The notes: generated by a model not told the origin, from the letters alone. Numbered from the stretch's first letter, positions 6,194 to 64,000 are shown. The stretch: 64,000 nt of DNA from Candidatus Woesearchaeota archaeon (GCA_964603525.1 CAZRVI010000001.1:749-64748), one strand, 5' to 3'. Translations and numbers: made by a program.

Positions 6194-6937
6194 CTTAATA
6201 TCTATACAAATTCTATAAACTCCTGGAGAATAAGCACCACACTTTGTTATATTTTTGATTTGAAATTTTTTGATATGTTTTTTAATTATATTTTTGATAT
6301 GTTTTTTATTTATTTCCTCTTTTTTAAGAAAAATATAGAGATGGATAATACCATTTTTTTTAATTTTCTTTTTAATTATATCAAGATATAGTTTAGAAGA
6401 TTTTGGTAAAGGCATGATTATTCTGTCAAATTTTTTTCTAATTTTTGGAAGTATTTTCTTAACATCACCTTTAATGTTTTTGATATTAATTAATTTGTTT
6501 AGTTTTACATTTTCTTCTGCATACTTATGAGCTATAGGGTTAATTTCTATTCCATAAATTTCTTTTGCTTTTGTATTCTTAGCAATTGTCAAGCCATAAG
6601 GTTGAACACCTGAAAAAGCAACTAAAATAGATTCTCCTTTTTTAATTTGTTTAAAGATTCTTTTTCTTTCTTCTGATAGTCTTTGAGAAAAATAACATTT
6701 TGAAACATCTAATTTTATTAGTACATTATTTTCTTTATGTATTGTTTCTGTTCTTTTTTCTCCTGCAAGATACTTTAATTTTCTTATTCTATATTTTCCA
6801 CTAAAAATTCCTGCTCTTTTATATATAGATTTGATATGTTTATGTTTCTTTAATAATATCTGGGCTTGTTTTTTTGTTCCTTTTTCATTTAAAATTGCTA
6901 TACTGCCAATAACATCATAAGAACTTATTTTATCCAT
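6188..6937 (-). CDS. Trm5/Taw2-family (Met-10+ like) tRNA methyltransferase
   Basis: Has the YDVIGSIAIL motif and a class I SAM-MTase core (VAFSGV...). The C-terminus is lysine-rich and repetitive. Confidence 0.55.
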   Translation of the reverse strand: MDKISSYDVIGSIAILNEKGTKKQAQILLKKHKHIKSIYKRAGIFSGKYRIRKLKYLAGEKRTETIHKENNVLIKLDVSKCYFSQRLSEERKRIFKQIKKGESILVAFSGVQPYGLTIAKNTKAKEIYGIEINPIAHKYAEENVKLNKLINIKNIKGDVKKILPKIRKKFDRIIMPLPKSSKLYLDIIKKKIKKNGIIHLYIFLKKEEINKKHIKNIIKKHIKKFQIKNITKCGAYSPGVYRICIDIKL

Positions 6938-7941
6938 TTTGTTAACCCTGTTTGGGATCTTATTTCTTTTGTTTTTTCTAGTTGCTCTAGTCTGCTATCT
7001 ATTCTTTCTTCTGAAAAATCATGTTTTTTAACAAGAATTTTTTTAATCATTTTTTTATCTGGTTCTTTCCATTTTAACTTATAATTTTTCATTATTGGCA
7101 TTGATTTATATACTGCATAAATTCTTTTCCAATTGAATTCTGCTTTTACTTTTTTAAATAAAGTATCAAAATTTTTGTATTGTTTGACTAGTCTTAAGGC
7201 TGTTTTTGGACCTATTCCTTTTATTCCTTCATTATAATCTGTTCCAACCAATATAGCTAAAGCAATTAACTGGTCTTGTTTTATTTTAAGATGTTTTAAT
7301 ACTTTTTTTAGCTCTATTAATTCTGGTGTGATTTTTATATAAGCCCCTGATGGAAGTTTTTTTCTTTGTGATAACGTTAGATTTGTTAATAATTTTGGTG
7401 CACCAAATAATAGACAATCAAAATCTGAAGACGCCGTAAAATCCACATGTTTTCTTTCGCACATAAATGCTATTTGCGCATCTGCTTCTGATGGTGCTTG
7501 AATTACTGGAATTCCTAATGCCTTAATTAAATCTTTTGCTTCATCAGACATTTTAAAAGACAATCTAGATGTTTGTTTTGCATATTTTGCCATTTCTTTT
7601 ATATCTTTTTTCTTTTTTGCTTGTTTTAATTTTTTTTCTGCTAATTGTTTTCTATGTTCCCTTTGTTCTTTTGTTTTTATCTTAAGAGAAGGGGGTTTTC
7701 CATCAAAACAAACTACTAATTTAACATTGTTTTTTAATAAACTTGTCAATCTATAAAACGAGCCTACTAAATGTGAAGTTATATTTCCTTTTTTGTCTTG
7801 TAATGGAGTTCCATCTGGTTGCCTAATTGATGCAATAAACTGATATAACATATTTGAAGCATCTACTGCTACTTTTTTGTTTATTAGCTGATCAAAAGAA
7901 ATTTCTTGTTTTGGTATAATTTTTGTTAAGTTAACACCCAT
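6925..7941 (-). CDS. fen: Flap endonuclease 1
   Basis: Has the XPG-N and XPG-I domains (VAVDASN...QAPSEADAQIA), an H3TH segment and a C-terminal PIP-like tail. Confidence 0.9.
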   Translation of the reverse strand: MGVNLTKIIPKQEISFDQLINKKVAVDASNMLYQFIASIRQPDGTPLQDKKGNITSHLVGSFYRLTSLLKNNVKLVVCFDGKPPSLKIKTKEQREHRKQLAEKKLKQAKKKKDIKEMAKYAKQTSRLSFKMSDEAKDLIKALGIPVIQAPSEADAQIAFMCERKHVDFTASSDFDCLLFGAPKLLTNLTLSQRKKLPSGAYIKITPELIELKKVLKHLKIKQDQLIALAILVGTDYNEGIKGIGPKTALRLVKQYKNFDTLFKKVKAEFNWKRIYAVYKSMPIMKNYKLKWKEPDKKMIKKILVKKHDFSEERIDSRLEQLEKTKEIRSQTGLTKWIK

Positions 7942-7983
7942 AGAAATTATTTAATAAAGGATTATATATAAAGATTTTTAAGT

Positions 7984-8610
7984 TTAATTTTCTAACCTAT
8001 AAAATAAAGTGTTTCCTATTACATATACAGGTTCTTGACGTTTACTCCAAAAAGGTTTTACTTTAGAAGTATGATAATGTGTAGCTCCGTTAGTTGGATC
8101 TTTGGCTTGCCTTGATAAAACTAAACTAGCAATATAAAGACACTTTTGCCATACACTTGGTGCTTCAAATTTGCAGGGATTTTGTAATTTAGGAAGGTTA
8201 GGATCATTTTTATTAAAGCAAGAGTATTGAGAATGTTTTAGAATAACTTCTTTTAATGTTTTACCATACCAAGATTCTTTTCCTAGCCTGTTTAGCGCTG
8301 TATAAGCTACAGCAATTTTAAGTTCATCAGAGCCTCCTCTTGCTTCACCATAAATAAGTCTAGCTAATAAAACAACATCTGAATCTTCTGAAAAGTCTGG
8401 AGATCCTTGTTTTTTAATTAAGTTTTCAAGATTAGAAGGTGGTTTTAATTTTTCTTTTACTTCTTGTTTAGAGGGTTTATTTAAAAAAGGAGATTTTATT
8501 GGATAGTGTGAACTTCCCATATGTTTAATTCCAAAAAAAGAAGCTATGAATATAATAGCACCTATTAAGAGCTTATCCTTTAGATTTTGTTTCTTTTTAG
8601 TTCTACTCAT
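7984..8610 (-). CDS. SleB-like cell-wall (murein) hydrolase family protein with an N-terminal TM/signal anchor
   Basis: LARLIYGEARGG...AVAYTALNR...QYSCFN...GATHYH matches Hydrolase_2/SleB family motifs. Confidence 0.6.
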   Translation of the reverse strand: MSRTKKKQNLKDKLLIGAIIFIASFFGIKHMGSSHYPIKSPFLNKPSKQEVKEKLKPPSNLENLIKKQGSPDFSEDSDVVLLARLIYGEARGGSDELKIAVAYTALNRLGKESWYGKTLKEVILKHSQYSCFNKNDPNLPKLQNPCKFEAPSVWQKCLYIASLVLSRQAKDPTNGATHYHTSKVKPFWSKRQEPVYVIGNTLFYRLEN

Positions 8611-8672
8611 TTTGTTTACTTTTTAGTAGTAATATCTATATATAAGCTTTTTGGTTAGTTTTAAATAGAATA

Positions 8673-11150
8673 TTGAATAAAAAGGTTAATATGTCAAAGA
8701 AAATTCAATTTTATCCAATTGAGATTGATAGTGTGATTATTAATAATAGAGATTATATCAGAATATTTGGAAAAACTACTGATAATAAGAAAATTTGTGT
8801 TTTTGATCAATTTGAAAATTATTTTTGGGTTATTCCTTCTAAAGAAAATATAGAGTGGGTTAGAAAACAGATAGAAAATATCAAAGTTAAGGACAATAAT
8901 GGAAAAATAAGGTATGTAAAGAGGGCTGAGTCACACATTAAGAATTTCTTAGGAAGGAATAGAAAAGCAATAAAAGTTATTTTAAATAACTCTGGAGATT
9001 TGAGATATATTTCTGAAGAGATTAAAAAGATACCTGGTTATGGGTCTAGAAAAGAAATAGATATTCCTTTATATAAGAAATATTTAATAGATAAGAAAAT
9101 AACACCCCTAACATTATGCGAAGGTTTTGGTAATAAGTTAGATAGCAATTTAGAAGTAGATATTAAATTATGTGGGAAAGTTATGCAAATAAGTTCTGAT
9201 CTAATTAAAAATCCAAAAATTTTAAGTTTTGATATTGAGACTAGTAATCCTTTGCAATCAGTACATGAATTTAAATTTCCAATTATCATGCTTTCTTTTG
9301 CTGGTAGTGATGGTTTTAGAAAATGTATTACATGGAAAAGTTTTGAGAATCATAAAAAAGAAATAGAATTTGTTAAAAATGAAGAAGAATTGTTAATAAG
9401 ATTTAAAGAGATAATTAAATGGTATAAACCTGATTATATTGTTGGTTATTATTCAGATGGTTTTGATTGGCCTTATATTAAAGCAAGAGCAGATTTGCAT
9501 GGGATTAGTTTAAATTTAGGTTTAGATAATGCAAAAATTAAATTTAGTAACAAAGGATTTTCTAGTTCTACTAAGATTTTGGGCATACCCAATATTGATA
9601 TTTGTAAATTTATAAAAAATTTGATGATTGGAGATGTTGCCTCTGGTTCATTAAAAACACAATCAGCAAGCCTGGATAGCGTAGCTAAAGAAATTTTAAA
9701 TGAAAGAAAATATCCTATTGATATTAGTAAATTACGTGAAGTTTGGAAAAAAGGTGGTCAAGAATTGGAGAGTTATTGTTTGTATAATTTAAAGGATGCT
9801 GAATTATGTTTAAGAATATTTGAAAAAATATTGCCTAATATTAATGAATTAGTTAAATTAGTTGGTCAGAAAATTTATGATGTTTCTAGAATGACTTTTG
9901 GTCAATTGATAGAAAACTACTTAATAAAAAAAACAAGAGATTTTAATGAGATAATCCCTAGAAGACCAACATATAATGAACGTGAAGATAGAACTTATAA
10001 AACATATACAGGTGGCTTTGTTTATGAACCCAAACCAGGCCTCTATGAAAACATAGCTGTTTTTGATTTTAGAAGTTTACATCCTTCTATAATAAGTGCA
10101 CATAATGTTTGTTTGTCTACTTTATCTAATAATAAAGAAGATAGTAATGAAACTCCTGAAATTGAAGGAAGAAAGTATTATTTTAATTACAAAAAGGAAG
10201 GTTTTATTCCACAAATAATAAGAGAGCTTATTCAAAGGAGGATGAGAATAAAACAAATTATAAAAGAAAATAAGAAAGATCCTGTATTAAATGCGAGAAA
10301 TTATGCTTTAAAGATTATTGCTGCTGGATTTCATGGATATCTTGGTTATTCTGGAGCAAGATGGTATAGTTTAGAATGTGCTGAAGGAATTCTAGCCTAT
10401 GCAAGAGACTATATTAAGAAATTGATTGCTAAATGTCTTGAAGCGGGTTTTAATATTATTTATGGCGATACTGATAGTGTATTCATTGGATTAAAAAATA
10501 AAAATAAAAATTATGTTGAAAAATTTTTGAATGATTTTAATAGAGATCTTCCAAGTTTAATGGAATTAGAATTAGAAAATTTTTATAAAAGATGTATTTT
10601 TGTAATGAAGAAAGGCGAAGAAAAAGGCGCAAAGAAGAAATATGCTTTAATTGATTATGAGAATGAGATAAAAGTTAGGGGTTTTGAAACTGTAAGAAGA
10701 GATTGGAGTGAAATTGCAAGAGAAACTCAAAATAGGATTTTAGAGATAATTTTAAAAGAAGGTGATATAAAAAAAGCTCTTATGTATGTAAGAGACGTTA
10801 TTAATCGGTTAAAGGAAAAAAAGGTTTCTTTGGATGAATTAAGGTTACAAACACAACTTAAAAGAAACATAGATTCATACGAGAGTATTAGTCCTCATGT
10901 AGCTGTTGCTAAAGCTATGAGAAGCAAAGGAATTTATGTTGGCGCTGGAACAATTGTTAATTATATAATTTCTGATGGTTCTGGGATGATTAAGGACAAA
11001 GCTATTATGTTTGAAGATGCAACTAATTATGATTCTGATTATTATATTAATCATCAAGTAATTCCTGCTGTTGAAAAAATATTTGAAGTTTTAGGTTATA
11101 GAAAAGAAGATTTGATTAGTGGAGAACAAACAAAATTGGATGAATTCTAA
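8673..11150 (+). CDS. polB: Family B DNA polymerase (PolB), intein-free
   Basis: Has the exonuclease motifs FDIETS and YYSDGFDWPY. The polymerase motifs are motif A DFRSLHPSII, the KxY motif and motif C YGDTDS. Confidence 0.9.
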   Translation: MNKKVNMSKKIQFYPIEIDSVIINNRDYIRIFGKTTDNKKICVFDQFENYFWVIPSKENIEWVRKQIENIKVKDNNGKIRYVKRAESHIKNFLGRNRKAIKVILNNSGDLRYISEEIKKIPGYGSRKEIDIPLYKKYLIDKKITPLTLCEGFGNKLDSNLEVDIKLCGKVMQISSDLIKNPKILSFDIETSNPLQSVHEFKFPIIMLSFAGSDGFRKCITWKSFENHKKEIEFVKNEEELLIRFKEIIKWYKPDYIVGYYSDGFDWPYIKARADLHGISLNLGLDNAKIKFSNKGFSSSTKILGIPNIDICKFIKNLMIGDVASGSLKTQSASLDSVAKEILNERKYPIDISKLREVWKKGGQELESYCLYNLKDAELCLRIFEKILPNINELVKLVGQKIYDVSRMTFGQLIENYLIKKTRDFNEIIPRRPTYNEREDRTYKTYTGGFVYEPKPGLYENIAVFDFRSLHPSIISAHNVCLSTLSNNKEDSNETPEIEGRKYYFNYKKEGFIPQIIRELIQRRMRIKQIIKENKKDPVLNARNYALKIIAAGFHGYLGYSGARWYSLECAEGILAYARDYIKKLIAKCLEAGFNIIYGDTDSVFIGLKNKNKNYVEKFLNDFNRDLPSLMELELENFYKRCIFVMKKGEEKGAKKKYALIDYENEIKVRGFETVRRDWSEIARETQNRILEIILKEGDIKKALMYVRDVINRLKEKKVSLDELRLQTQLKRNIDSYESISPHVAVAKAMRSKGIYVGAGTIVNYIISDGSGMIKDKAIMFEDATNYDSDYYINHQVIPAVEKIFEVLGYRKEDLISGEQTKLDEF

Positions 11151-57168: not shown

Positions 57169-57930
57169 TTATTTAACTTCTTTATAATAATAGAAAATAA
57201 TTAAAGCGATTATTGAGAATATTACTGCGATTGTTGTTGCTGTAAGGGCGTTAATGAAGTGGAGTAGTATTGTTGTTATTAAGATGAATGCTAATCCGAA
57301 TATATATAGGTTTTTAGAGCCGAAAAATATTTTGCAACCTGCTATTCCTGGTAGAGGCACCATATAAGAGATTGCAATAAAGGAATTAACGATAATTAAA
57401 GGATAAAATATGTTTTTGTTAATCAGAGCTAATATTATTGCAAAAGCGATATTAGCTAGTGGTCCAGACAAAGCTATTTTTGCTGTTTCGTATTCCGTTA
57501 GTTGTGTATATTTTCTTCCTATCCTATAAGCAGGGATTATTTTTGTTGTAAATGAAAGTGATGCGGCGAACAAGATTTGTCCTGTTGAAAATATCGCTAT
57601 GATTATTGGCAGTATAATTCCTGTTGGAAAATAAGGTATTTTATAGTTTAAGATTTTTATTGGGAGTTTTGATGATTTCCAAATTCCGAATCTTTTTGTT
57701 GTCCATAATTTGTAAGAAGATACAGCGCCATATTTTGTACTAAAATATTTTTGTGTTAAGGTATGAATTAATAAAGCTATTAGTGAGAATATTGTAAGTT
57801 TTATGAAATTGGAAAACCAATATAAAAGTTCAAATACATGTTTTTTATCATCAAAACCGAATACAAACCCTGCTACTAAAGCAGCTATTATTAATGTGTT
57901 AATTTCTTTTTTTTGAAATTTAATTTTAAT
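57169..57930 (-). CDS. Polytopic membrane domain, probably the C-terminal half of the TraB-family protein, separated from it by a 1-nt frameshift in an A8 run
   Basis: The frame is open from 57930 to 57169 (about 250 aa, 6-7 TM helices) with no ATG, and the ORF track starts it at an internal TTG. It becomes contiguous with the upstream TraB frame if one A is added or removed in the A8 tract at 57906-57913. Confidence 0.5.
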   Translation of the reverse strand: MKIKFQKKEINTLIIAALVAGFVFGFDDKKHVFELLYWFSNFIKLTIFSLIALLIHTLTQKYFSTKYGAVSSYKLWTTKRFGIWKSSKLPIKILNYKIPYFPTGIILPIIIAIFSTGQILFAASLSFTTKIIPAYRIGRKYTQLTEYETAKIALSGPLANIAFAIILALINKNIFYPLIIVNSFIAISYMVPLPGIAGCKIFFGSKNLYIFGLAFILITTILLHFINALTATTIAVIFSIIALIIFYYYKEVK

Positions 57931-58580
57931 TCACCTAAGACCTGTTTTTCGTGTCCTGCGCCTATGATTGCAAGTATTTTCTTATTTGGGTATAATATAG
58001 AGAGATTATATAAATTTTTTGCAAGGACTTTGTTTCTATCTTTAACTAGAATTTTATAGAATGATGGATATGATTTTTTAATTTTTTTGAGTAATTTGTT
58101 TACTAGTTTTTGAGAAGGCACTTTTTTTAAATCAAATTTTATTTTGTTCTTTTTTGAAAATAATGATGTAAATATTTCTTTTATAAATGTAAATTTTTCT
58201 TTCCAAGTGATTTCTTTCATTAATCTTTTGATTGTTATTTGAATGTCCTGGTCTATTAAAGCGATTCTTGCTTTTATTTTTTTAGCGAGTTTGATTGCGG
58301 TTTTCATTTCTGATCCGGGTGCAACTCCTGTATATTTTCCTAATTTTTTTTCTATCCATGCACCGATTAAATTAAAGAGAAAGCCCTTGAATCCTAGAGA
58401 TTTAATATCTGAGAATTTAAGTTTCCTAGTTTTGGATAGCAAGGAGGAATATCTTTTTTTATCTAATTCTAAAGCAATTATTTCAGGTTTTATTTCAGTG
58501 ATTTTTTTGGTGACTTCTTTTATGCTTTCAGGTGATATATGAGAGGTTCCTATTATAGATATATTCTTGAATGTTTTCAT
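57891..58580 (-). CDS. TraB/PrgY/GumN-family protein, N-terminal domain
   Basis: IIGTSHISPESIKEV...PEIIALELDKKR...AIIGAGH matches TraB-family motifs. Confidence 0.65.
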   Translation of the reverse strand: MKTFKNISIIGTSHISPESIKEVTKKITEIKPEIIALELDKKRYSSLLSKTRKLKFSDIKSLGFKGFLFNLIGAWIEKKLGKYTGVAPGSEMKTAIKLAKKIKARIALIDQDIQITIKRLMKEITWKEKFTFIKEIFTSLFSKKNKIKFDLKKVPSQKLVNKLLKKIKKSYPSFYKILVKDRNKVLAKNLYNLSILYPNKKILAIIGAGHEKQVLGELKLNFKKKKLTH

Positions 58581-58586
58581 TAAGGA

Positions 58587-58913
58587 ATGAAAATATTTAA
58601 ATACTTAAAAAGATTTGCTATTTTAAATTGGAGGTTAAAAATGGTTTTAAATATTAAGAAGATATCTGATGTTTTTAATATGAAAGTTTTTACTGATCAG
58701 GGTGAATATTTTGGTGATGTTGAGGAAACTATATTAACTCTTAATAAAGTTTTTGGATGGAAAGTTAGAGCAACTAAGAATTCTACTTTATCAAGGATTT
58801 TGGGTGGTGCAAAAGGGGTTATAGTACCACATCAGTTGGTTAAAGCTATTGGAAATATTATGATTATTAGTAAAGCAGCTATTCCTAGCTATGAAGAGAA
58901 AGAAGAAGTTTAA
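58587..58913 (+). CDS. PRC-barrel domain protein
   Basis: VFTDQGEYFGDVEETIL...GVIVPHQLVKAIGNIMIIS. Confidence 0.5.
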   Translation: MKIFKYLKRFAILNWRLKMVLNIKKISDVFNMKVFTDQGEYFGDVEETILTLNKVFGWKVRATKNSTLSRILGGAKGVIVPHQLVKAIGNIMIISKAAIPSYEEKEEV

Positions 58914-58960
58914 TTTCTAAATGATAAGATTTATATATTAAAGGAATTCTTTTTATTATT

Positions 58961-59530
58961 ATGGTCTCGCCATTAGGAATAGCTATGAATTTCTTAGAGA
59001 AGTTTGGTTTTTTTGATGTTGTCCTACCTTTTTTGCTTGTATTTACATTGGTTTTTGCTATTCTAGAAAAGACAAAAATACTTGGAACTGAAAAAGTTAA
59101 AGGCGAGGTTGTTCCTAGAAGAAGCATTAATTCCATGGCTGCATTTGCGATAGCAATGTTTGTTACAGCTGCTTCACAAATTGTTGAAATATTAAAACAG
59201 GCATTGCCTATGATAATTTTAGTTTTAATTGCATTAATTAGTTTTATGATGTTGGCTGGAAGTTTGTTAGGGAGTAAAGAATTTAGTTTTGAGAAAAATA
59301 GGGGATGGAAAATATTTTTAACAGTAGTTTTATTTATTTCTATAGTTCTAATATTTATGGGTGTAATAAAACATGAGTCTGGTGATACATGGTTAAAAAT
59401 TGTTTGGGATTATATTGTTGAAAATTGGGCATCTGGTCCTTTGATTTCATCTATTATTTTTTTAGCAGTTATAATTTTAGTTATATATTTCGTTGTAAAA
59501 CCTTCAGGAGGTAAAACAGAAACAGGATAA
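58961..59530 (+). CDS. 4-TM membrane protein, paralog 1 of 3 (unknown family)
   Basis: Shared N-terminal signature LEKFGFFDVVLPFLLVFTLVFAILEKTKILG. Confidence 0.4.
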   Translation: MVSPLGIAMNFLEKFGFFDVVLPFLLVFTLVFAILEKTKILGTEKVKGEVVPRRSINSMAAFAIAMFVTAASQIVEILKQALPMIILVLIALISFMMLAGSLLGSKEFSFEKNRGWKIFLTVVLFISIVLIFMGVIKHESGDTWLKIVWDYIVENWASGPLISSIIFLAVIILVIYFVVKPSGGKTETG

Positions 59531-60090
59531 TGGCAATAGATTTTGGTAATGTTTTTATGGAATTAGAAGCAATGGGTTTGTTTGATGTTATGCTGCCTTT
59601 TCTGTTGGTTTTTAGTATAGTGTTTTCTGTTATTAATAAGACAAAGATATTTGGTGATAGAAAAGGAGTGGATGTTGTTGTGGCATTGGTTTTATCTTTT
59701 TTAGCTGTTAGAAGCGAGTTTTTTGTTGGATTAATGAAAAGTTTTTTGCCTAATGTAGCAATGTTTATGATAATAATTTTAATGTTTTTAATGATGCTTG
59801 GGATTTTTGCAGGTGAGAAAAAGGAATGGAAGGGTGTTGCTTTTGGTTTAGGAGCATTTGTTTCATTTATTTTTATTTTATTTTCTTTATTATTTGACTA
59901 TACAGCTAATTATGTTGAATTTCCTTACTGGTTAAGAGATTTGTTTTATGGTATGGATGATAGGACAAAAGGGATTATATTGTTTGTGGGTGTGTTAGTG
60001 ATTGTTATATGGATTGCAACAAGGGAGAAACCTAGTGATGGAAGTGAAGGATGGGTAGATAGATTGCTTAAAGGAATGAGTGGAAAATAA
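59530..60090 (+). CDS. 4-TM membrane protein, paralog 2 of 3
   Basis: LEAMGLFDVMLPFLLVFSIVFSVINKTKIFG. Its start overlaps the previous stop (TAATG). Confidence 0.4.
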   Translation: MAIDFGNVFMELEAMGLFDVMLPFLLVFSIVFSVINKTKIFGDRKGVDVVVALVLSFLAVRSEFFVGLMKSFLPNVAMFMIIILMFLMMLGIFAGEKKEWKGVAFGLGAFVSFIFILFSLLFDYTANYVEFPYWLRDLFYGMDDRTKGIILFVGVLVIVIWIATREKPSDGSEGWVDRLLKGMSGK

Positions 60091-60098
60091 GATCAAAA

Positions 60099-60629
60099 AT
60101 GGCATCACCATTTGCTTCAGGAGTTGCATCAGAATTTTTGATTACTACTTTTATTTTTATATTTATATTTGCTATTTTATATGCTTTAATTAGCAAAATT
60201 GAATTATTTGGAGAGAATAAAGCTGTTCATGTTTTAATAGCATTTTCTACTTCTTTATTAGTAATATTTATTCCGGAGACTAAAGCATTGATTAATTTTA
60301 TGACTCCTTGGTTTGTGATATTAATAATTTTGATTGTGTTTATGTTATTAGCTGTTATGGCTTTAGGTATAAAACATACAGAGATAACAGATTGGTTGAA
60401 AAATGTGAGTCCTGGTACTACGAGTGCTGTGGTGATTATTGTTTTAATTTTGTTTTTATTCGCTGTTTATAAGGTATTTGGACCTGTTTTTACTATGGCT
60501 GGTCCTGAGGAAACAGGTTTATGGGCTTCTATTACAAGGGTTGTTTTACAACCAAAGGTTTTAGGGGTAATATTTTTGTTGTTGATAGCATCCGCTGTTG
60601 TAAGGTATATTGGATTTAAAGAAAAATAA
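60099..60629 (+). CDS. 4-TM membrane protein, paralog 3 of 3
   Basis: Same topology, with a more divergent N-terminus (FIFIFAILYALISKIELFG). Confidence 0.35.
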   Translation: MASPFASGVASEFLITTFIFIFIFAILYALISKIELFGENKAVHVLIAFSTSLLVIFIPETKALINFMTPWFVILIILIVFMLLAVMALGIKHTEITDWLKNVSPGTTSAVVIIVLILFLFAVYKVFGPVFTMAGPEETGLWASITRVVLQPKVLGVIFLLLIASAVVRYIGFKEK

Positions 60630-60632
60630 AAA

Positions 60633-61247
60633 TTATTTTTTGAGTTTTGTTGTGAGCCTTTGTAATTCTTTTATGTTTGTTGTTAGTGGTTGTAATATTT
60701 TCTGTAGAGTTTTTTCTATTGCTCTTACATCTGCTCCCACAGATTTTATTGATTTATCGTATTGTGATACTTTTCCTAAAACTGCTTTATTAACTTCTTC
60801 AAATCTATGTTCTAATCTTAAAAGTTCCTGTTTGATGGAAATTATTTCTGTTCTTACTTTTTCTTTCCATAAGTTAATATCACCTATTCCTGCTGTTATT
60901 GTGTTCCATTTTTCTTCTATTATTTGTTCTATTAAAGCTTCTACCTCGTCTTTTCTAATTCTATCTATTGCTGGTGCTGCTGGATATTCTGGGTAGACTG
61001 GTGCTGGAAGAATTTCTTGTTTTGTTGGAACTGGTGAAGGTATTTGTTTCTGTTGAATGTAATCTTCTTCGTATTTTGGTGTTGATACAGGTTTTATTTC
61101 TTCTTTTTCTTTTTCATCTTCAATTTCTGTATAAGTTTTTTCTTGTTCTGGTGTGTATTCTTTAGGAACTTGTTCATCTTGGTCTAAAGCAGAAGCTGTA
61201 TAACCAGAGAGATCATTATTTTTTCTTTTTTGTTGCAAGCTTACCAC
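60633..61247 (-). CDS. Coiled-coil protein with a Pro/Glu-rich N-terminal linker
   Basis: N-terminal acidic P/E/Y-rich low-complexity segment, then heptad repeats. Confidence 0.4.
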   Translation of the reverse strand: MVSLQQKRKNNDLSGYTASALDQDEQVPKEYTPEQEKTYTEIEDEKEKEEIKPVSTPKYEEDYIQQKQIPSPVPTKQEILPAPVYPEYPAAPAIDRIRKDEVEALIEQIIEEKWNTITAGIGDINLWKEKVRTEIISIKQELLRLEHRFEEVNKAVLGKVSQYDKSIKSVGADVRAIEKTLQKILQPLTTNIKELQRLTTKLKK

Positions 61248-61605
61248 CTTTTTTTAATTTTTCATCTATTATTTTTTCTATTTCTTCTGATGTTACAAAG
61301 TTTAAGGGGTTCCATAGATTAATATACTTTTCTAAAACTTTAAGATCTTGCTTTGTAGCGAAATCTGATATTTCCTGTACTAATTTTTTTATGGTTTCTT
61401 TAAATGTTGTTAAGACTGTTTTTAAATTTTGTAATTCTTTATTTATTTTTGTGAATTCTTCTGATAGTTTTTTATGAGATTCTATCATATTTTGGTTGAT
61501 TATTAGTAGTCTTTCTGCTAGTAATTCGTATCTATTTTCTAGAGTTCTAACTCTACTGTTTAAGTCAGAAATAAAATATGAAATATCTTGCATTACCTCT
61601 GGCAT
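61216..61605 (-). CDS. Coiled-coil protein
   Basis: Heptad repeats throughout. It overlaps the downstream gene by about 30 nt. Confidence 0.4.
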   Translation of the reverse strand: MPEVMQDISYFISDLNSRVRTLENRYELLAERLLIINQNMIESHKKLSEEFTKINKELQNLKTVLTTFKETIKKLVQEISDFATKQDLKVLEKYINLWNPLNFVTSEEIEKIIDEKLKKGGKLATKKKK

Positions 61606-61701
61606 TTTAATCGAAAAGTATTTAATATTAGTATTATTTTATATTTATTAACTTTGTTATTTGGTAAGGGTTATAGAATTTTGGTTTAGAAAAGAGGGAA
61701 A

Positions 61702-63918
61702 ATGGCTGTTTGTGGTTATGAAATTAGTAGGGAAGGTGAAGAAGAGGTAATGAAGATTGATTGTAATGCTTGTTCTTATGTTCCTTCTTTAGAAAATAAT
61801 GCTATATGTATGATGAGAACTATTGATAAATTATCTGAGGTTCCGAGTGTTTCTAGGATTATTTTTAATCAGAAAAGAAATTATAGTTATAATTATGAGC
61901 AAACTCAATTGTTGGTTGAGATTGCTAATTTATATAATTTTTTAGTAAAACAGAAGAAGATATTAAGTTTAAAGGAATTTGGTTTAGATGAGAAAGCTTT
62001 GGCGAATAAGCATGGTAATATAAGATATTTGGTTTTTGGTTTGTTAAGAAGTGATCCTCTTGGTGCATATGTTGAAGCAAAAAGATTTTTAAGAGAAGCC
62101 AAGATTTCTGGTGAGACAGGAAAGTATTTAGAAATATTAAAGTATATAGTTGAGTTATTAGGTAAAACAAAGTTAGTAGGTTTAGTTAAAGAAAAATTAG
62201 CTGGTTATGTTTTAGGTAATAGAGGGCTGTATTCTGATATTTTTAGAGCAAGTATAACTCCTGATTTTATATATACAAGGTTGATGGCAAGTTTTCCTAG
62301 GGAAGCAGAGCAATTAGAGAGTTATAGTATCAAAGATATTGATATTAATATTTTTAGGATAAAAGAGGATATTAATTATTTGTATCATGTTACACCTCCT
62401 GAATTTAAGATTTCTGAGGATGAATATAAATTATTGTATTTAGCAAGAACTGTTTTAGCTGAACATAAACCTAGGGAGGAAGAATTTTTAGATCCTGAGA
62501 GGATGAGAAAAACTTTTTTGAATATTGGTAGGGATTTACTGCAAGAATTAGCAGATAGCCAGCATATTTCTATTGGTTTTTCTGAGTTGCAGGAATTAAA
62601 TAAGATTTTGGTTAGGTATACTGTTGGTTTTGGGATGTTAGAGGTTTTGTTACAGGATCCTAAAATACAGGATATTACTATAAATTCTCCTGTTGGTAGA
62701 AGTCCTGTATTTATTGTGCATGAGGATTATGGTGAATGCAAAACTAATATTATTCCTAGTGTTCCTGATGTTGAAGGATGGGCAACTAAATTTAGGTTGG
62801 TTTCTGGAAGACCTTTAGATGAAGCTAATCCTGTTTTGGATACAGAGTTAAGTGTTCCTGGAGCAAGAGCAAGAGTTGCAATTATAACTAATCCCTTAAA
62901 TCCTTATGGTCTTGCTTATGCTTTGAGAAGGCATAGAGATAAACCTTGGACTTATCCTTTATTCATTAAAAATAAGATGATTAATTCTTTAGCAGCAGGT
63001 TTAATGAGTTTTTTGATAGGAGGTGGAAGATGTATTTTATTTGCAGGTACTAGGTCAAGTGGAAAAACCTCGATGATGACTGCAAGCATGTTTGAGATTA
63101 TGAATCGGTATAGAATCATTACAGCTGAGGACACCTTGGAGATTCCTAATGAAGCTTTTAGAAAATTAGGTTATAATATACAAAGTATGAAAATGAGATC
63201 CGCTTTAGCTGTTGGGGGTACTGAAGTGCCTGCTGATGAAGCAATAAGAACAAGTTTGAGAATGGGTGATTCAAGTTTGATTGTTGGAGAGATAAGATCA
63301 GAAGAAGCTCGCGCATTATTTGAATCAATGAGGATTGGTGCATTAGCTAATGTGGTTGCAGGAACAATACATGGTGCAAGTCCTTATGCTGTTTTTGATA
63401 GGGTTGTTAATGATTTGGGTGTTCCTAGGACAAGTTTTAAAGCTACTGATGTAATTTTTATTTCAAATCCTATAAAGAGTCCTGATGGGTTGCATAAATG
63501 GAGAAGGGGTTTACAAATTGCTGAAGTAAGAAAGCACTGGGAGGAAGATCCATTAAGAGAAAAAGGTTTTGTGGATTTGATGTTATATGATCCAAAAACT
63601 GATGAGTTGAAGGTTACAGATGATTTAAAAAATGGAGAGAGCGAGGTTATAAAAGAAATTGCTGGGAATATAAAGGAATGGGCTGGCAATTGGGATGCTG
63701 TATGGGAAAATATTTTGTTAAGAGCAAAAATAAAACAGACTTTGGTTGATTATGCTAATAAGATAAATAATTTTGAGATTTTAGAAGCACCTTTTGTTGT
63801 TAAATGCAATAATATGTTTCATAGAATAAGTGATGGAGTAAGAGAAGAAGTTGGTGCTTTAGATAGCAAAATGATTTTTAAGAAATGGAATGAGTGGTTA
63901 AAAAAGGAAATTAAATGA
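61702..63918 (+). CDS. FlaI/TadA/VirB11-family secretion or type IV filament ATPase with an N-terminal extension of about 430 aa
   Basis: Has Walker A LFAGTRSSGKTS, the TAEDTLEI motif, a Walker B and GEIR box (LIVGEIRSEEA) and a His box. Confidence 0.8.
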   Translation: MAVCGYEISREGEEEVMKIDCNACSYVPSLENNAICMMRTIDKLSEVPSVSRIIFNQKRNYSYNYEQTQLLVEIANLYNFLVKQKKILSLKEFGLDEKALANKHGNIRYLVFGLLRSDPLGAYVEAKRFLREAKISGETGKYLEILKYIVELLGKTKLVGLVKEKLAGYVLGNRGLYSDIFRASITPDFIYTRLMASFPREAEQLESYSIKDIDINIFRIKEDINYLYHVTPPEFKISEDEYKLLYLARTVLAEHKPREEEFLDPERMRKTFLNIGRDLLQELADSQHISIGFSELQELNKILVRYTVGFGMLEVLLQDPKIQDITINSPVGRSPVFIVHEDYGECKTNIIPSVPDVEGWATKFRLVSGRPLDEANPVLDTELSVPGARARVAIITNPLNPYGLAYALRRHRDKPWTYPLFIKNKMINSLAAGLMSFLIGGGRCILFAGTRSSGKTSMMTASMFEIMNRYRIITAEDTLEIPNEAFRKLGYNIQSMKMRSALAVGGTEVPADEAIRTSLRMGDSSLIVGEIRSEEARALFESMRIGALANVVAGTIHGASPYAVFDRVVNDLGVPRTSFKATDVIFISNPIKSPDGLHKWRRGLQIAEVRKHWEEDPLREKGFVDLMLYDPKTDELKVTDDLKNGESEVIKEIAGNIKEWAGNWDAVWENILLRAKIKQTLVDYANKINNFEILEAPFVVKCNNMFHRISDGVREEVGALDSKMIFKKWNEWLKKEIK

Positions 63919-64000
63919 AAAAAGGAACAGAGGAAAGGATAAGAGAAATTTTAAGTAAATATAAAAAAGAATTAAGTAAAAGAATAAGTTTAGAGGCTTT
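63916..64000 (+). CDS. Start of the next ORF (partial). Its position after the ATPase suggests a membrane platform protein, but that is not supported by sequence here
   Basis: The ATG at 63916 overlaps the ATPase stop (ATGA). Only 28 codons are visible. Confidence 0.2.

Follow-up and report, generated by a model that had tools for sequence, protein, structure and literature searches.

What kind of machine is encoded at the end of this archaeal sequence, and how many of the adjacent genes belong to it? The window (the whole stretch of DNA analysed here, 64,000 nucleotides from a Candidatus Woesearchaeota archaeon) closes with a run of genes that the initial annotation read as one undescribed cell-surface or attachment apparatus, extending from a TraB-family protein to a large secretion ATPase. 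All of the genes that it named are present, with the following positions and products:

57891-58580, minus strand: TraB-family protein (PF01963, E = 1e-20)
58587-58913, plus strand: PRC-barrel protein (PF05239, E = 1.2e-5)
58961-59530, plus strand: membrane paralog 1, 189 aa, five hydrophobic segments
59530-60090, plus strand: membrane paralog 2, 186 aa, its start overlapping the paralog 1 stop
60099-60629, plus strand: membrane paralog 3, 176 aa, more divergent and lacking the FDVxLPF motif
60633-61247, minus strand: soluble coiled-coil protein, 204 aa, its ORF overlapping the next one
61216-61605, minus strand: soluble coiled-coil protein, 129 aa, divergent from the ATPase gene
61606-61701, no strand: AT-rich intergenic region, 96 bp, sequence read directly
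61702-63918, plus strand: predicted secretion ATPase, 738 aa (PF00437, E = 2.4e-11)
63915-64000, plus strand: start of a predicted polytopic platform protein, 708 aa, running on to window-equivalent position 66041 (6883-9009 of locus L001)

We think it probable that 58961-64000, together with the ~2 kb that follow the window, is a type IV pilus (T4P)-like assembly module specific to one lineage, the Woesearchaeota/Pacearchaeota-type Nanoarchaeota. Its motor is conserved across hundreds of these tiny archaea, with five unstudied helper genes alongside, and this accessory set (the paralog trio and the coiled-coil pair) is apparently lineage-specific and undescribed.

A conserved module and its changing flanks

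Conservation of the neighborhood in related DPANN genomes, which had been suggested as a check, was borne out: the arrangement recurs in dozens of species with the same order and strands, far beyond chance. Across 82 species-level related loci (denominators vary by gene), the order of three paralogs, two coiled-coil genes, and the ATPase-platform pair was kept in ~80-95%, with order and strands constant wherever the genes occur. The platform gene lay beside the ATPase gene in 67 of 70 loci, the 129-aa coiled-coil gene in 62 of 73, the 204-aa coiled-coil gene in 54 of 66, and at least three paralogs in 45 of 57. Reciprocally, searches from the paralogs recovered the two coiled-coil genes and the ATPase gene downstream in nearly all long loci. 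Upstream of paralog 1 the flank changes, with AspRS, TatD, MBL hydrolase, or GatA found there among the loci.

This pattern bears directly on the view that TraB, the polytopic membrane protein, the PRC barrel, and everything onward to the ATPase make up one undescribed apparatus. Contiguity of all these genes in the window speaks for it, as does the preservation of their order in loci L002-L004 and in almost all of 80 metagenome loci, the latter having been chosen for their close similarity to paralog 1. Among the 82 species-level loci, however, TraB was beside the module in only 21 of 51, PRC in 24 of 54, and the M50-like gene in 23 of 48 (41-48%), and their presence tracks an adjacent Hef-LigT-arginase housekeeping block, with Hef found in 16 of 18 loci that have TraB versus 3 of 24 that do not. 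Where the three are absent, unrelated housekeeping genes precede paralog 1, and all the genes from the paralogs through the platform are retained downstream of these. To our knowledge, moreover, the TraB family is widespread and has no link to type IV pili. We therefore regard a single apparatus spanning the whole block as very improbable, and TraB, the M50-like membrane protein, and the PRC barrel as housekeeping neighbors, not module components. A point against the module reading itself is that local synteny is extensive in these genomes as a whole, unrelated housekeeping genes included.

The neighbors themselves are readily classified. TraB scores 75.1 bits against PF01963 (gathering cutoff 26.8), as a member of the TraB/PrgY/GumN family, and 171 bits against TIGR00261 (cutoff 178; model positions 4-216 of 380). 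The polytopic membrane domain thought to be fused to it is instead a separate ORF in the -1 frame that overlaps the TraB 3' end; in relatives it is a separate ATG-started gene, and no canonical start codon was found here before 57573. The PRC barrel scores 25.7 bits against PF05239 (cutoff 21.2), matches the “PRC-barrel domain-containing protein” entries PDB 8ONW and 8QZO at E = 2e-11, and has the single-domain, ~90-110 aa form of stand-alone archaeal (CdpB-like) PRC-barrel proteins. The literature places this class in cell division, which further argues against a part in a surface apparatus, and by analogy 58587-58913 is probably a CdpB-type division protein.

The secretion ATPase and its predicted platform

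By its sequence, the 738-aa protein is a FlaI/GspE/CpaF-class secretion ATPase, catalytically intact as judged by its motifs, and thus provides the GspE/VirB11-superfamily enzyme of a type IV filament (TFF) assembly system. Walker A (G449-S457), the Asp box (E476-E480), Walker B (D523-R532), and the His box (A553-H557) are invariant in 26 homologs. Matches in the PDB are afGspE, CpaF, and FlaI, with afGspE better than FlaI, and the alignments begin at ATPase residue 277-303, equivalent to residue 36-120 of those proteins; for CpaF, a point of likeness to the Tad/Flp pilus, the aligned stretch is residues 277-570 (E = 5e-18). Since the alignments start there, the true surplus over FlaI is ~180-230 aa, and the “430-aa extension” noted previously is an artefact, set by the position at which Pfam begins its P-loop domain, with ~120 aa of it being an ordinary FlaI/GspE-type N-terminal domain. 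In order, the protein consists of an N-terminal module peculiar to the family (up to residue ~230), the FlaI/GspE-type N-terminal domain, and a RecA-like core that holds the ATPase motifs. Nor is the protein “giant”, as 738 aa is normal in a family whose homologs span 747-772 aa. This family is large and highly conserved (55-85% identity), with more than 5000 homologs, of which the best 120 are 59-85% identical over full length, and with relatives encoded in at least 580 GTDB species. About 10 of the best 120 homologs contain inteins, elements that favor essential, conserved genes.

Could the locus then be for motility? Among NCBIfam models, FlaI fits the ATPase best (E = 9e-35), some homologs are named “FlaI” in JGI annotations, and the archaellum shares its ATPase class and its ATPase-platform logic with the module. 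The score against the FlaI equivalog (NF058587) is, however, only 120.4 bits versus a cutoff of 550, afGspE outperforms FlaI as a PDB match, the module ATPase carries the extra 180-230 aa N-terminal region, and neither FlaH, FlaF, FlaG, FlaX, FlaC/D/E nor archaellin families were found among the called genes of loci L001-L004 or among the window proteins. We consider an archaellum locus barely credible.

The next ORF begins at 63915 with an ATG that shares bases with the TGA stop of the ATPase gene (ATGA), which suggests translational coupling of the two. This ORF had been put forward as a possible platform gene, with a search beyond 64000 for a FlaJ/TadC-like gene proposed, and the platform idea is supported. 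The ORF continues to 66041 and encodes a 708-aa protein with ~9 hydrophobic segments, along with two helical regions on the cytoplasmic side. At the sequence level, no T2SSF/GspF/PilC/TadC/FlaJ signature (PF00482 or equivalent) was detected: Pfam and NCBIfam gave no match even at E = 1, a profile search of PDB sequences gave nothing at E = 10, and no Pfam domain occurred in the 120 listed homologs. The AlphaFold model, in contrast, has a GspF/PilC-like cytoplasmic helical bundle that Foldseek pairs with the EpsF, OutF, and PilC domains at a probability of 0.99-1.00 and that superposes on them at 3.0-3.4 Å rmsd. As a polytopic protein with this bundle fold encoded beside the ATPase, it is, according to the model, a highly divergent platform protein. 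Against this reading count the negative sequence searches and the fact that we detected no internal duplication in the protein. One homolog is annotated by JGI as “Flp pilus assembly protein TadB”.

Pilin-like genes and relatives among type IV filament systems

The pair of a secretion ATPase and a platform supports the earlier idea of a cell-surface filament or attachment machine, with filament use inferred from TFF systems; it does not support a new kind of apparatus, as the core is that of a TFF system. Archaeal TFF/T4P-like systems have been catalogued (Makarova et al. 2016, PMC4858521; Sivabalasarma & Albers 2026, bioRxiv 10.64898/2026.04.22.720090), and the nearest known ones appear, from their published description, to be of the clade 4 type, whose ATPases carry extra N-terminal domains. 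Shared features are the ATPase and platform encoded as an adjacent pair, a subsystem-specific ATPase N-terminal module, and cytoplasmic coiled-coil accessory proteins. Subclade 4F is described as having a Cys-rich ATPase N-terminal domain and the coiled-coil accessory arCOG07564, its ATPase being “also found in nanoarchaea” without cognate pilins (PMC4858521), and on the basis of that description the four N-terminal cysteines of the window ATPase (C4, C21, C24, C36) resemble it. The cysteines are not conserved across the module ATPase family, and the module platform is unrecognizable by Pfam T2SSF. As for bacterial systems, the platform bundle superposes on T4aP/T2SS domains, but this archaeon has just one membrane, its platform consists of one 708-aa protein, and no TadZ, PilM/N/O, GspL/M, or secretin homologs were found.

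We scanned for class-III signal peptides with a home-made regular expression and hydrophobicity filter, which is not a validated predictor. This motif scan found no such genes in window positions 1-64000, its only two matches being internal to the paralogs, and inspection of the 64-kb window revealed no ORF resembling an A24 peptidase/prepilin peptidase; both points weigh against the favored module. For this organism the analysis covered the window and a 4-kb extension. With the same scan, 3-10 class-III-signal-peptide ORFs directly followed the platform in ~17 of ~40 related loci with enough flank (~40%), the arrays being seen in L003, L004, and about 16 more loci, and in many relatives these are typical short (50-250 aa) pilin-like genes. 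In archaeal TFF systems, too, such genes neighbor the motor in some genomes but not in others, and the pilin genes of the window's organism would have to sit elsewhere in its genome.

Alternatively, the ATPase-platform pair might power a non-adhesive, possibly essential process, such as bindosome-like uptake, DNA or protein transfer, or formation of the host-directed cytoplasmic bridge. The ATPase is far more conserved than is usual for pilus motors (~60% identity across orders), and the intein-bearing homologs, the very divergent platform, the lack of adjacent pilin genes in more than half of the loci, and the murein hydrolase domains (M23, Amidase_3) on some downstream class-III-signal-peptide proteins are consistent with such a role, as is the argument for functionalised TFF machineries in the 2026 preprint (bioRxiv 10.64898/2026.04.22.720090). 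The short pilin-like genes that follow the platform in many relatives nevertheless point to filaments, and the ATPase scores only 53.5 bits against NCBIfam BasE, the bindosome ATPase (cutoff 1000). All members of this ATPase/platform class known to us assemble class-III or prepilin-type filaments, and we judge a non-pilus machine improbable. For the favored T4P-like module, TFF knowledge predicts that the hexameric ATPase would drive the platform through ATP hydrolysis, and that the platform would pull class-III-signal-peptide pilins out of the membrane and polymerize them into a surface filament, which may serve adhesion or host contact.

The putative accessory genes

No known T4P or archaellum accessory family matches any of the five remaining genes, in line with the earlier remark that the block does not fit a textbook archaeal pilus or archaellum locus, and within the reach of our search we found no description of a trio of five-segment paralogs with a coiled-coil pair in PMC4858521 or bioRxiv 10.64898/2026.04.22.720090. 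That the three membrane proteins are tandem paralogs is upheld by HHalign (probability 100% for paralog 1 versus 2, 99.2% for 1 versus 3), whereas the FDV(V/M)LPFLLVF signature attributed to all of them is missing from paralog 3, and each has five hydrophobic segments (Kyte-Doolittle), not four. Paralog 1, with the conserved N-terminal motif FGFFDVVLPFLLVF..AILEKTKILG, is proposed to be an accessory membrane subunit. Neither Pfam nor NCBIfam assigns it to a family above threshold; the paralogs' weak sub-threshold matches are to membrane families (MprF flippase region, DUF2070), and their family comprises 2623 clusters at 50% identity, nearly all of them stand-alone proteins of 170-200 aa.

In the coiled-coil pair, the 204-aa protein joins a variable acidic/Pro-rich N-terminal half to a conserved ~105-aa C-terminal coiled coil (EKW...WK...KAlEkV...NvkeL), with no TM segment by hydrophobicity and only generic coiled-coil noise in Pfam, and the 129-aa protein has the conserved C-terminal motif KYI.LWNP..FVT. 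The 96-bp region between the pair and the ATPase gene is common to the coiled-coil and ATPase-platform operons and presumably holds a bidirectional promoter.

What ties the paralogs and coiled-coil proteins to the ATPase is nothing but gene order, and their role is read from conserved synteny only. The machine may consist of the ATPase and platform alone, with the other five proteins unrelated in function and adjacent through inherited synteny; they could be, say, a complex for small-scale transport or lipid handling and a cytoskeletal or division factor. Beyond the lack of homology to known accessories and the paralogs' membrane-family matches, this is favored by the paralog operon being convergent with the coiled-coil operon and not co-transcribed with it, and by uncoupling: in ~15-20% of loci the paralogs or coiled-coil genes are not beside the ATPase gene, and in at least three loci the trio either occurs without it (L138/L139, L154) or is separated from it (L144). 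ATPases from loci without the accessories do not diverge further in their N-terminal region (40% identity, against 44%). An adjacency of 79-85% with fixed order and orientation, however, exceeds that of true flanking genes, and the shared 96-bp presumed divergent promoter region and a conserved extra ATPase N-terminal module with no other obvious partner likewise argue for a connection, making this narrower machine, in our estimation, rather unlikely.

Assuming that the accessories do belong to the T4P-like module, the three paralogs would form a membrane sub-complex and the coiled-coil pair would act as scaffold or regulator in the cytoplasm, both of which may dock on the ~200-aa family-specific ATPase N-terminal module and fill the role that FlaX/FlaH, PilM/N/O, or TadZ have elsewhere. 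In the archaellum, the coiled-coil scaffold FlaX interacts with FlaI, and by analogy we propose a FlaX-like scaffold role for the coiled-coil pair, although its members lack the TM anchor of FlaX. The concept of an inner-membrane accessory sub-complex docking on the ATPase N-terminus is likewise shared with Tad/Flp and T4aP/T2SS. Subsystem-specific N-terminal ATPase domains with accessory proteins are a recurring archaeal TFF theme (PMC4858521; bioRxiv 10.64898/2026.04.22.720090), and the literature on TFF systems proposes such domains as accessory-binding surfaces. More tentatively, and as a possibility on which we would not rely, the trio, the coiled-coil pair, and the fold-orphan ATPase N-terminal module could constitute an undescribed Nanoarchaeota-specific type IV filament subsystem with its own membrane/cytoplasmic stator or scaffold, near-universal in Woesearchaeales/Pacearchaeales-type DPANN and needed for a host-dependent lifestyle, which in some lineages may display pilin-anchored murein hydrolases toward bacterial partners.

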